Source: a virus. Taken from it: a DNA stretch of 64,000 bases. The translations under genes were made by a program, and so were the position numbers. A model generated the notes under the pieces. That model made no database searches. It was given only the letters and a program-made list of their open reading frames with translations, and was not told the origin of the DNA. Location of the stretch: the IMG/VR virus record IMGVR_UViG_3300044695_006747, positions 122,824 through 186,823 of that record; one strand, given 5' to 3'. Position 1 is the stretch's first letter; the number at the start of each line of letters is the position of its first letter. This document shows, piece after piece, positions 30,043 to 64,000 of this stretch.

Positions 30043-30059
30043 ATTATTCTTTCTTTAAG

Positions 30060-30413
30060 TGGAGGCGGGGGAAGTCGAATCCCCGTCTTGTGATAACTTT
30101 AATATAATCTCTACAAGTTTATTTTGTTCATAAATTTTGAGAAAGATTAAAGAACAAACAACATTCATCTTTCCGTACCAACTAATCTCAGGCTAGAACC
30201 CGTTGGCTATTCTAGCAGCCGAAGGATTTTACGACAATCTTTTGAACGCTACCTTCATCGCTTTCTAAGATTGTTGCTGTTATTTAATTAAGCAGCAAGG
30301 GCTAACTGATTTGTGCCAGTTAAAGCATTTGGTAGATTTTTAAAGTGGCCTTTCCACCAACCACTACTTGCTAATTATACCAAATTTTATCCAATCGATA
30401 CCGTTACGCCCCC
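30060..30413 (-). ncRNA. ssrA: tmRNA; tag peptide (A)GTNQLALAA at 30288-30317
   Basis: Acceptor GGGGGCG/CGCCTCC with G3-U70 and A73, T-loop TTCGACT, resume context TTAACT-GGC, tag ending LAA. Confidence 0.93.
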
Positions 30414-30689
30414 TAATCTTTATTATTATACACAAAATCCTTATTTTGTAAAGTCTCTAGTTTGAGATAGAGATATTCAAAAAATACTCTATACATCATC
30501 TTCTCTTTTTCTAGAAGTTTGATTTCCTCATATTGTAAAATATTAAACCCAATTGATATTGATAACAAACCAATTATGAAAGTATAATACGGTAGGTGTT
30601 TTGAGCGATTAGTCATATAATATTTACTTGTCTTGAATCGAATATGGTGTATGATACTTTATCAAAGTTATAACAAGGAGATTCGGCTT

Positions 30690-31199
30690 ATGAGTCAATG
30701 CGTCAACTGTTTCAAAGAAACAAATAATCCAAAGTTTTGTTCCAGATCATGCGGTGTGTCATACAATAATCGAATAAAGCCTAAAAGAATTGCAACAAAA
30801 AAATATTTTAAGTGTTTATATTGTAAGAAGAAAACTCAATTTTATACTAATAATCCAAGAAAATATTGTTCAAAAAGTTGTAGGATAATACATAATAGAA
30901 ATACTTCAGACAGTCTCATAGAAGTGAATGGGTTTGGCAGTGGTCATTATCATAATGCAACAATCAGAAAATATTTGATAAGAAAACATGGGAATAACTG
31001 TATGATCTGCGGACAATCTGGAGACAATTGGAATGGTAAACCTATTACGCTTATTGTGGATCATATTGATGGAAAGTCCAACAATAATATGCTTGATAAT
31101 CTCCGTATTGTTTGTCCAAACTGCGATTGTCAATTGCCTACTTATAAGGCTAAAAACAAAGGCAACAGTTCTAGATCATATTTTATAGTTCAAAAATAA
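30690..31199 (+). CDS. Free-standing HNH endonuclease with N-terminal zinc motifs
   Basis: AAGGAG RBS; CxxC/FCSRSC repeats; LIVDHIDG..NN...NLRIVCPNC. Confidence 0.9.
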   Translation: MSQCVNCFKETNNPKFCSRSCGVSYNNRIKPKRIATKKYFKCLYCKKKTQFYTNNPRKYCSKSCRIIHNRNTSDSLIEVNGFGSGHYHNATIRKYLIRKHGNNCMICGQSGDNWNGKPITLIVDHIDGKSNNNMLDNLRIVCPNCDCQLPTYKAKNKGNSSRSYFIVQK

Positions 31200-31200
31200 A

Positions 31201-31472
31201 TAGCGCGTGTTGGAGTCGAACCAACCTTTTGAATACCTTATCTTACCACTATAACTTTCGTTACCCAAATGGTTTGTGGTCTGGACTTTATCTTTACCAT
31301 AACTTTAGTTTTAGGTACTGCCTGTCAAGTCTCTACACCTTACTATTTAATAGTCTTGGCTCGGTATTAGCATTTTAAAGCCTTCACCGAATTTAAGCAG
31401 TTCTACTCTACTGGTTTCCCAGTAGGCACTCATAATTTTAAGAGTATGTGCAACTACCGGCTGCAACGCGCC
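31201..31472 (-). tRNA. tRNA-Ile(UAU) split by a group I intron (exons 31472-31440 and 31241-31201)
   Basis: Spliced 74 nt: acceptor GGCGCGT/ACGCGCT with A73, anticodon stem ATACT/GGTAT, loop CT-T^AT-AA, T-arm GTTGG TTCGACT CCAAC; D-arm short and atypical. Confidence 0.8.
31242..31439 (-). mobile_element. Group I self-splicing intron (IC3-like, 198 nt, no ORF)
   Basis: P1 CUU/GAG with U-G, P2 CTACTGG-GAAA-CCAGTAG, P3 CTGCTT/AGGCAG, P4 TCGGT/ACCGA, R GTAGAGACTTGAC, S AAGATAAAGTCCA, P9 GTAAC-GAAA-GTTAT, terminal G, P10 TTAT/ATAA. Confidence 0.9.
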
Positions 31473-31503
31473 ATATTGTAAAAGATCAACCACCAACTCT
31501 CGT

Positions 31504-31532
31504 ATTATACCTTATCGACCAATCCCTGTCAA
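31504..31532 (-). promoter_or_regulatory. Promoter TTGACA-N17-TATAAT for the intron-containing tRNA
   Basis: TTGACA GGGATTGGTCGATAAGG TATAAT; shares ATTGGTCGATAAGGTATA with the promoter at 62648-62676. Confidence 0.8.
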
Positions 31533-32074
31533 CCCTTGAGAAATTTTTCGTAATAGTGGCGATAAAAACCCATAATTATGCCACTAGTTGTTCCAACATT
31601 TAAAGACCTAACACTTCCATAAGTAGGAATAGTTAAAACACAACTACAAGCCATAAGAATCTTTTCTGATAAACCAGCATTTTCTTCTCCAAAAATAAAA
31701 ATTGGTTCATCAACATTGGAGAAATCAAAATTAAAAGGATCGAATGTAATATCTTTGTATTCTGGAATATTATTTTCAATAGCAATTAATGTACGACCAC
31801 TTGACGAATGTGATTTAATAAAATCTTCTTCAGTTTTATGATGATACATTGGGGTATAGTGGTGGGTTCCTACACTACCTCTTTTATCCCATTTCTTTTT
31901 GCCTACATAATGAACGCTACGAAATCCAAAAAAATTAGCATTACGAACCATAGTGCTAAGATTAAAATCTCCACTGATATTAATCATTGCAACACTAGCG
32001 GGAATACTTTTATCCTGACAATATTTGGCAATATCTGGTATAGCCAAGTCTTTCAAACTATCAAGCACGTTCAT
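31529..32074 (-). CDS. SpoU/TrmH-family (TrmL-like) RNA 2'-O-methyltransferase
   Basis: NLSTMVRNA, IAIE, FIFGEENAGLS, IPTYGSVRSLNV. Confidence 0.88.
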   Translation of the reverse strand: MNVLDSLKDLAIPDIAKYCQDKSIPASVAMINISGDFNLSTMVRNANFFGFRSVHYVGKKKWDKRGSVGTHHYTPMYHHKTEEDFIKSHSSSGRTLIAIENNIPEYKDITFDPFNFDFSNVDEPIFIFGEENAGLSEKILMACSCVLTIPTYGSVRSLNVGTTSGIIMGFYRHYYEKFLKG

Positions 32075-58919: not shown

Positions 58920-58970
58920 ATTTTTCGCTGACTACAACCACCCTAACCGAATCCATAGGATTAGCTAAGA

Positions 58971-59057
58971 CGGAATCTGAGGGATTCGAACCCACGGAGG
59001 ATTTTAACCCTCGGCGGTTTAGTAAACCGCTGCCTTAAACCACTCGGCCAAGATTCC
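58971..59057 (-). tRNA. tRNA-Ser(ACU), A34 anticodon
   Basis: GGAATCT/AGATTCC, G73, GCGGT-TT ACT AA-ACCGC, long variable arm. Confidence 0.88.
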
Positions 59058-59060
59058 AAA

Positions 59061-63042: not shown

Positions 63043-63573
63043 ATACTAACCTTACATATTCATCTGCCAGTTCTTTTGTAGTTATATTATGAATCCTCAT
63101 TACATCTGCTACTTTAGTCACAACGTTTCTATTCATTGCGCTTATTCGTGAGTTAAAAAAGTTCAACAAATAAATAATCGCTTGTGAACGAGTCATTTTA
63201 TCAGCGTCAATACTATTTAAGTCACTAAAGTTTTTAGCCATTAGGATAATCCTCTGGGTAATCTGTTACTGGTCGTTCTGGTTTAGGCTGTCCCTCATAT
63301 GGCATCCACCAAGGAGCATCCATACGATCCACAAGACCCGGACTTTCTTCACAAATAAGAATATGCGGACTCACAGGATCATCACGATGAATCTCATACC
63401 GTCCACGCCACACGCCAATATCTGGCCCAAAGTAGTAAACCTTCTGGCCGTTGATAGGGCGACGATAACCAAAAAAACTAAGCCATTCCATTTTGCTTTC
63501 CTTTTCCGTCATTATACCAATCATTCTGTATCTGTCAAGAGTATTAAAATACCGGCTGTTAATAGATCGACTT

Positions 63574-63649
63574 AGTGGATAGATGGATTCGAACCATCAA
63601 CTCCTCTTGTATTTAAACAAGTGGAACTCTACCTTTGAGTTATACCCAC
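63574..63649 (-). tRNA. tRNA-like gene with extended anticodon arm, anticodon undetermined
   Basis: Normal acceptor GTGGGTA/TATCCAC, D-arm ACTC/GAGT and T-arm GATGG TTCGAAT CCATC, but anticodon arm CC-A-CTTGT-TTAAAT-ACAAG-A-GG. Confidence 0.6.
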
Positions 63650-64000
63650 CGATAGTTTTACAAATAATGTCCGGTATCACGCATTACTTAACCCTAACGG
63701 CTCTCGCAGTCTTAGGTTTCTATCCGACCCCTGTTTGTAACCAGCGGAATCATTTACGCCCCGATTCCTATAATCCATACGATTGTCCGTTGTCTGGATC
63801 GGATGGAAACCGCCCACGGAAACCTCCCTAGAATCTTTATGATTCATCTGGCTCTTGGTGACGGTTACTGATTGTATTGGTCGTGGTGAGGACGCTATCC
63901 CCCATAGATTAGCATTACTATACAGCGTATAAGCCCGCTGTCAACCCCACGCTGCATAACAGCCGTAGGTTTATCGTAATGGCTTATCCTAATCTAGTCC

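Follow-up and report, generated by a model that had tools for sequence, protein, structure and literature searches.

The locus examined here raises the question of whether a phage tRNA-Ile gene whose anticodon is interrupted by a group I intron can still supply a decoder for AUA codons, and whether the intron acts as a switch or travels as a passenger. The stretch of DNA that was analysed (the window, 64,000 nt) belongs to an IMG/VR virus record of 186,823 bp, which has direct terminal repeats, is rated complete and has 34% G+C; among its genes are those for rIIA, endonuclease VII and an ATP-dependent DNA ligase. The intronless form of the tRNA found no match among 50,697 deposited phage genomes, and therefore no cultured relative; the source is an uncultured T4-like phage of ~187 kb without a close cultured relative. 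From the fold of the intron, its junctions, the conservation of the tRNA family, the pattern of indels among relatives and the codon use, all of which are observed, we conclude that the locus is very probably a phage tRNA-Ile(UAU) gene that is split between U34 and A35 by a group I intron and spliced to give an AUA decoder, with the intron as a mobile passenger. The parts of the locus are as follows.

31472..31201, minus strand: split tRNA-Ile(UAU) gene, intron after U34
31440..31472, minus strand: 5' exon of the tRNA, 33 nt, G1-U34, placed by ARAGORN and family variants; acceptor 5' strand, shifted D-arm, anticodon stem 5' strand, C32 U33 U34
31242..31439, minus strand: group I intron, 198 nt, ORF-less (Rfam RF00028)
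31201..31241, minus strand: 3' exon of the tRNA, 41 nt, A35-A73; A35 U36 A37 A38, anticodon stem 3' strand, 7-nt variable region, T-arm, acceptor 3' strand, discriminator A73
31504..31532, minus strand: sigma-70-type promoter, TTGACA-17 nt-TATAAT, 12/12 consensus matches, 5' of the pre-tRNA
31473..31503, minus strand: leader from the promoter to the tRNA 5' end, holding the ~24-nt stretch GTTGGTGGTTGATCTTTTACAATAT
30633..31199, plus strand: free-standing HNH endonuclease ORF (PHROG 1271, E 6e-22), convergent with the tRNA
31198..30619: ~580-bp cassette holding the HNH gene, absent in close relatives

The tRNA gene does not encode CCA at its 3' end. The same TTGACA-17-TATAAT promoter precedes the intronless alleles L185 and L207 of related viral contigs. 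Downstream of the tRNA, at a distance of 800 bp, is a phage-encoded tmRNA (30057-30413, minus strand; Rfam RF00023, 117.5 bits), which keeps this position in many related viral contigs. A module that runs from a small ORF through a SpoU methylase gene (in some cases), tRNA-Ile(UAU), a second small ORF and the tmRNA to endonuclease VII is common to dozens of viral contigs.

The initial annotation had described the insert as a 198-nt ORF-less group I intron with a complete set of core helices, to be checked against the Rfam group I model with Infernal. This description holds. The RF00028 match, at 31451..31264 (minus strand) and model positions 1-253, reaches 58.7 bits where the gathering score is 50 (E 2e-14), and no ORF of 50 aa or more is present inside the intron. 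The match was obtained with equal score from a 501-nt slice and from a search of the phage's own genome, in which it is the sole group I intron. Rfam scans of the whole window, run with gathering and with E-value thresholds, returned no intron; this miss is a filter artefact, caused by the speed filters of Infernal. Helices were assigned by hand from the cmscan alignment and checked by pair counts over eight homologous introns. They are listed below by intron position, all on the minus strand, where the window coordinate equals 31440 minus the intron position.

G9-G11: guide sequence
15-32: P2, with a GAAA loop at 22-25
39-44/118-123: P3
49-54/75-80: P4
58-60/69-71: P5
81-102: P6/P6a
107-112/153-157: P7
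125-143: P8
160-164/191-195: P9.0
177-188: P9, with a GAAA loop at 181-184
198 (window 31242): terminal G198, closing the intron 3' end ...GUGGUAAG

Two pairings between intron and exons place the splice sites. In P1, exon residues C32-U33-U34 pair with intron G11-A10-G9, ending in the wobble U34•G9 and extended by an A1-U8 pair within the intron. P1 is short (3 exon pairs and 1 intron pair), and the cmscan alignment favours another P1 register, in which the splice site has no U•G pair. In P10, intron U5-U6-A7-U8 pairs with exon A35-U36-A37-A38. Both pairings had been proposed from the letters alone, as CUU/GAG with the U-G pair and as TTAT with ATAA; both are present, and together with the terminal G198 they are kept in 8/8 homologous Ile introns. 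The P10 guide UUAU replaces the AUUU found in phage Leu(UAA) introns, matching the exon sequence AUAA in place of AAAA. Given these features, the compact peripheral helices, the GAAA loops on P2 and P9 and the 80.6% identity to a tRNA-Leu(UAA) intron, the insert in tRNA-Ile(UAU) is read as a compact group I intron, probably IC3-like and so of the type known from bacterial tRNAs.

Removal of the intron in silico gives a product that ARAGORN reports as tRNA-Ile(tat) of 74-76 nt. The precursor itself is reported as Ile(tat) i(35,198) by ARAGORN -i at lowered thresholds (-ps90 or -ps95) only; at default stringency no tRNA is called on it. In the spliced product the anticodon stem has the 5 bp (ATACT/GGTAT) and the loop the 7 nt (CTTATAA) that had been anticipated. 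The loop C-U-U-A-U-A-A, with U33 and A37, and the discriminator A73 are kept in 12/12 family variants. As read from this gene, the UAU anticodon exists only after splicing.

The junctions are fixed independently by natural genes that carry no intron. Scanning IMG/VR with the pattern CTCTTATAAGGT...GGTTCGA recovered the uninterrupted sequence CTCTTATAAGGT in at least 120 contigs, and ARAGORN calls tRNA-Ile(tat) for 118 of the 120 contigs among the matches listed. The commonest intronless allele (10 contigs, among the matches listed) equals our spliced product except for one compensatory pair, G3-C70 instead of C3-G70, and it is this near-identity that establishes the junctions. The junction CTCTT^ATAAGG, whose departure from this form the initial annotation had named as a refutation, is identical to the uninterrupted sequence of at least 120 intronless viral contigs. 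The site, U34^A35, is also that of the tRNA-Leu(UAA) introns, as had been suggested. Thus the splice junction predicted from the intron pairings is the exact sequence of a natural intronless gene, far beyond chance. A separate candidate, that the gene is a mutated tRNA-Leu(UAA), was ruled out: there is no long variable arm, and the gene is a member of a large Ile(UAU) family.

The tRNA core is odd. The acceptor and anticodon stems are just 18 nt apart, with U8 alone 5' of a 4-bp D-stem (GCAG/UUGC) and two bases 3' of it; G1 stands opposite U72, and the variable region has 7 nt. With the RF00005 model, whose cut-off is 29, a near-identical intronless allele reaches 28.4 bits, since its D-arm fails to align. 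The gene might accordingly be disabled, the intron no longer splicing or the tRNA being a decaying relic, so that the host alone decodes AUA; the non-canonical D-arm, the sub-threshold score and the very short P1 speak for this reading. The same D-arm is, however, the form of the whole intronless family. Among 12 intronless variants of this form (type A), the acceptor, D and anticodon stems are 100% paired, the T stem has 1/60 cells unpaired, and all four show double compensatory changes, e.g. A-U to C-G in the D-stem. By this comparison the short D-arm is a conserved family trait and not decay, which answers the earlier worry that a tRNA with such an arm might not function. Additionally, the exons are intact, with the compensatory pair at 3-70 as the lone difference from the commonest allele among the matches listed, and the consensus promoter is kept. 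Together with the state of the ribozyme described below, this makes a disabled gene extremely unlikely.

Other forms of the tRNA occur beside type A. A type B form of Ile(UAU) has the highly conserved D-region AAGGTAAGCCGGTTGCATCCG, which gives no normal D-arm fold; it is represented by L125, L128, L072, L263, L264 and L267 and by many intronless loci, and its intron-bearing genes are miscalled by ARAGORN, either as Arg(acg) or as 'Stop(tta)'. The viral contigs also include Ile(UAU) genes with a canonical cloverleaf. In our phage, an ORF for a SpoU-family RNA 2'-O-methyltransferase (31529-32074, minus strand; Pfam PF00588, E 4.5e-24) ends within the tRNA promoter; its likeness to RlmB, TrmH and TrmL is weak. 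Among viral relatives, a SpoU gene lies upstream in 15/35 type A Ile(UAU) genes, 0/46 type B genes and 0/22 others. Judged from this distribution, the methylase is a possible tRNA-modifying partner of the type A tRNA; the linkage may reflect lineage only.

Intron-split Ile(UAU) genes were found by scanning viral and metagenome contigs for the P7/3' end of the intron followed by ATAA. The intron-bearing alleles comprise L274 and L266 of type A; L125/L128, L072, L263, L264 and L267 of type B; L256 of another form; and the canonical tRNAs L129, L248, L251 and L273, which have longer introns. Our intron was aligned with seven others at 79-99.5% identity. Across these eight Ile(UAU) introns the core pairs of P3, P4 and P7 are near-invariant, double compensatory changes occur in P2, P5, P6a, P9 and P9.0, and the P2 pair 18-29 takes four pair types. 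The covariation of the helices and the invariant junction pairings suggest that the RNA has been kept able to splice, from which we infer activity. In line with this, all core elements of our copy are intact and its helices are of the kind held by covariation, contrary to what a disabled gene would lead one to expect. The preferred reading, an intron that is spliced out to yield a tRNA, is thus retained in what follows.

The demand for such a tRNA is evident from codon use. ATA makes up 43% of Ile codons in 172 long ORFs (34.5 per 1000 codons). The split gene is the phage's sole Ile tRNA gene, and neither TilS nor an IleRS-family class I synthetase was found in the genome. The genome's other tRNAs point the same way: all ten with an assignable anticodon pair with A- or U-ending codons (10/10), serving UUA, AGA, GGA, AAA, CAA, GAA, ACA and others, and an eleventh has an anticodon that ARAGORN left unassigned. 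Two of the tRNA genes are unusual in themselves: ARAGORN reports a tRNA-Ser(ACU) at 58969-59058 (minus strand) with A34, unusual for bacteria-type systems, and a tRNA-like gene '???(aa)' at 63573-63650 (minus strand), which scores 45.7 bits with the Rfam tRNA model. The proposal of a phage-supplied, lysidine-independent AUA decoder fits these genome data and would depend on a host IleRS that accepts UAU. E. coli IleRS is reported to be poor at charging UAU tRNAs, and a UAU anticodon that lacks modification can misread AUG (PMC3575796). A phage tRNA-Ile(UAU) therefore raises the question of how a lysidine-independent decoder is charged, and excluded from AUG, in ordinary hosts.

We infer splicing, charging, decoding and the route of mobility to proceed along the following lines. 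The pre-tRNA would be transcribed from its own consensus sigma-70 promoter. The intron would fold, its guide GAG pairing with exon CUU so that U34 stands opposite G, and free guanosine would cut at U34. P10 (UUAU with AUAA) would align the 3' exon, and the exons would be joined after the terminal G, giving the loop CUUAUAA. Host enzymes would trim the 74-nt product, with its family-typical shifted D-arm, and add CCA; host IleRS presumably charges it, and the tRNA would then read AUA, the codon of 43% of the phage's isoleucines. The intron itself probably spread by recombination between co-infecting phages, with the HNH gene helping in some lineages. The initial annotation had termed the decoder splicing-dependent; this stands for the present gene and does not extend to its close relatives, which have the same tRNA without the intron.

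Those relatives show how the intron comes and goes. L185, L205 and L229 are ~88% identical to our phage in the flanks, and the blastn alignment blocks skip exactly the intron. The HNH cassette (580 bp) is likewise an indel relative to L185, L205, L229, L207 and L223, which have 12 nt in its place. In the opposite direction, L274, which comes from a contig of 185 kb, carries our intron with 196/197 identity and lacks the HNH cassette; its adjacent small ORF and tmRNA are 79% and 86% identical to those of our phage. Since the intron is near-identical in a distant phage and absent from closer ones, it has either moved laterally in recent time or been lost repeatedly. On these sequence comparisons the intron is best read as a mobile, largely neutral passenger and not as a switch.

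The leader differs along the same line. Its stretch GTTGGTGGTTGATCTTTTACAATAT is missing from the closest intronless relatives among the matches listed, in which the tRNA starts 10 nt past the -10 box; it occurs in 5 distinct intron-bearing alleles versus 3/120 intronless ones among the matches listed, and may be a co-conversion tract. This linkage of the leader to several intron-bearing alleles could also be taken to mean that splicing is a control step, in which the ribozyme (through its need for guanosine, Mg2+ and folding) or the linked leader gates or times phage translation. The tRNA is the sole phage-encoded AUA decoder in a genome with heavy ATA use, and no part of the locus is better conserved between this phage and L274 than the intron; both facts would suit such a role. 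Yet the tRNA occurs without the intron in at least 120 viral contigs, among them the closest relatives, which share promoter and synteny, so the intron is dispensable; the same intron family occupies many unrelated tRNA species and protein-coding genes, as expected of a selfish element, and the host presumably has an AUA decoder of its own. Because nearly all relatives do without the intron, a regulatory role is very unlikely, and we continue to regard the intron as a passenger.

One possible means by which the passenger moves is suggested by the neighbouring HNH gene. The two marks of a homing pair, an adjacent endonuclease and an ORF-less intron, are both found at this locus, where 1 nt separates the HNH stop codon from the end of the tRNA. 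Among the matches listed, an HNH homologue abuts the tRNA in 4/12 distinct intron-bearing alleles versus 1/112 intronless alleles with enough flank (Fisher p 2.5e-4, a value that is optimistic because the alleles are related and not phylogenetically independent). HNH homologues adjoin the intron-bearing L125/L128, L267 and L266, whereas L274, L072, L263, L129, L248, L251, L273 and L256 have the intron without HNH; conversely, L224 alone among the matches listed has HNH without the intron, its homologue being 68% identical and adjoining an intronless type A tRNA-Ile(UAU). These data would accommodate collaborative homing, in which the HNH enzyme cuts the intronless tRNA-Ile(UAU) of rival phages at or near the anticodon loop, the intron disrupts the site in its own genome, and repair carries the intron over, alone or together with the HNH gene; such a process would supplement the main explanation and not replace it. 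Besides the tight abutment and the biased co-occurrence, it would account for the fact that intron and HNH cassette are both indels relative to relatives with ~88% identical flanks, and for the near-identical intron in a more divergent phage. Against it, the two elements are often separate (eight intron-only alleles, and the HNH-only L224), and the HNH enzyme might target the spacer beside the tRNA, with the intron dragged along by co-conversion. Given that intron and HNH are also found separately, collaborative homing is a reasonable though unproven supplement to the passenger reading, and a somewhat unlikely one. A broader version, in which the intron, the HNH gene and perhaps the leader form a composite homing system aimed at the anticodon region of phage tRNAs, is suggested by the same arrangement and is more doubtful again. 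Were it true, the nuclease would destroy the intronless tRNA-Ile(UAU) of co-infecting competitors as the ribozyme immunises its own copy, phage tRNA genes would join protein genes as arenas of homing-endonuclease warfare, and the spread of the intron family into many phage tRNA species could be accounted for.

The breadth of that spread is apparent from the exact 18-nt core motif AAGGTGTAGAGACTTGAC, which is present in at least 119 viral contigs. Host tRNAs of these introns were placed by ARAGORN, some placements being unreliable; among the matches listed they comprise Leu(UAA) at 34 loci, Arg(UCU) at 13, Lys(UUU) and Glu(UUC) at 5 each, Ser(UGA) at 3, and Thr, Pro, Gln and putative suppressor tRNAs at 1-2 loci each. 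Overall, the core-motif loci L006-L124 represent about a dozen phage tRNA species, and the family is also found in protein-coding genes, e.g. pelagiphage capsid genes. A quick tree groups the Ile introns in a clade of their own (support 0.985), which is not nested within the Leu clade; deeper nodes are weak, with supports of 0.43-0.89. A hop of the intron from Leu genes was considered and is unsupported, as the Ile clade falls outside the Leu clade and the deeper nodes are weak. Among prokaryotes, sampled as one genome per species, a narrow intron-end/ATAA pattern gave 10 hits, 0 of them with an intron core or a tRNA; a bacterial Ile(UAU) intron of the same subfamily was not found with this pattern. 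A cultured jumbo phage, Agrobacterium phage Atu_ph07 (L003, MF403008.1 112676-113611), carries a split, unannotated tRNA-Leu(UAA) gene, whose group I intron of 278 nt follows U34 (RF00028, 48.9 bits); it is a bench-tractable example of a phage tRNA intron.

Taken together, these findings place a ribozyme of the textbook bacterial tRNA type inside the anticodon of a phage tRNA. Standard tRNA finders and default-filter Rfam runs overlook both the intron and the tRNA, and inventories of phage tRNAs and analyses of codon supply are therefore biased. In addition, the natural set of alleles with and without intron and with and without HNH makes intron mobility between phages directly testable; L224, in which HNH is present and the intron absent, is a useful allele for the homing model.

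Bacterial tRNA introns are established in Leu(UAA), fMet, Ile(CAU) and Arg(CCU). The survey of Williams (2020, bioRxiv 10.1101/2020.01.27.920355), which covers cellular genomes, distinguishes 21 classes; within its seed alignment, tRNA-Ile is represented by Ile2.5Ug and Ile2.2Ug (Ile2(CAU)) only, and Ile.3Ug is absent. According to a 2014 review, every phage group I intron known at that date interrupted a protein-coding gene, although phages have many tRNA genes (PMC3984707). Devoto et al. (2019) described introns in phage tRNAs as previously unreported, and theirs are not group I (PMC6784885). Our literature search found no paper on a group I intron in a phage tRNA gene or in tRNA-Ile(UAU).

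The closest known system is the tRNA-Leu(UAA) intron of cyanobacteria, plastids and other bacteria ('Leu.3Ug' in Williams 2020, bioRxiv 10.1101/2020.01.27.920355), which occupies the same U34/A35 site (CUU|A). Our intron shares with it the guide GAG followed by UGC, an ORF-less length of ~200 nt, GAAA loops on P2 and P9 and the 3' end ...GUGGUAAG; its best match in the phage collection is the Leu(UAA) intron of a 735-kb megaphage, with 80.6% identity over 169 nt. Unlike the Leu(UAA) system, ours lies in a class I tRNA-Ile(UAU) with an atypical D-arm, in a phage genome, and its P10 guide is UUAU, not AUUU. A further parallel is the Azoarcus tRNA-Ile intron, a small self-splicing intron of subgroup IC3 within the anticodon loop of a tRNA that reads AUA; its architecture, P2-P9 with two GNRA loops, is comparable to that of our intron. 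That intron, however, lies 3' of the anticodon (loop position 5 in the Williams numbering) of a CAU tRNA requiring lysidine, whereas ours lies inside the anticodon of a UAU tRNA that would not need TilS. The same anticodon and the same proposed AUA role are found in tRNA-Ile2(UAU) of Mycoplasma mobile and other bacteria lacking tilS (Taniguchi 2013, PMC3575796); in M. mobile the gene is uninterrupted, and the IleRS (Arg865) and the ribosome are adapted (PMC3575796). In contrast, our tRNA is phage-borne, intron-split and shifted in its D-arm, and would depend on the IleRS and ribosome of the host.

For the intron together with its neighbouring nuclease, the nearest parallels lie in T4-like phages. 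F-CphI, next to the psbA intron of cyanophage S-PM2, is reportedly a case of collaborative homing between an ORF-less intron and a free-standing endonuclease, and SegB is said to be an endonuclease within the T4 tRNA cluster. Our locus resembles these in combining an ORF-less group I intron with an adjoining free-standing homing-type endonuclease in the tRNA region of a T4-like phage. It differs from the S-PM2 pair in that the interrupted gene is a tRNA and not a protein gene, and in that intron and HNH are often separate. What is new at this locus is therefore the host gene, tRNA-Ile(UAU), and the type of genome, a phage; the ribozyme class and its mechanism are familiar.
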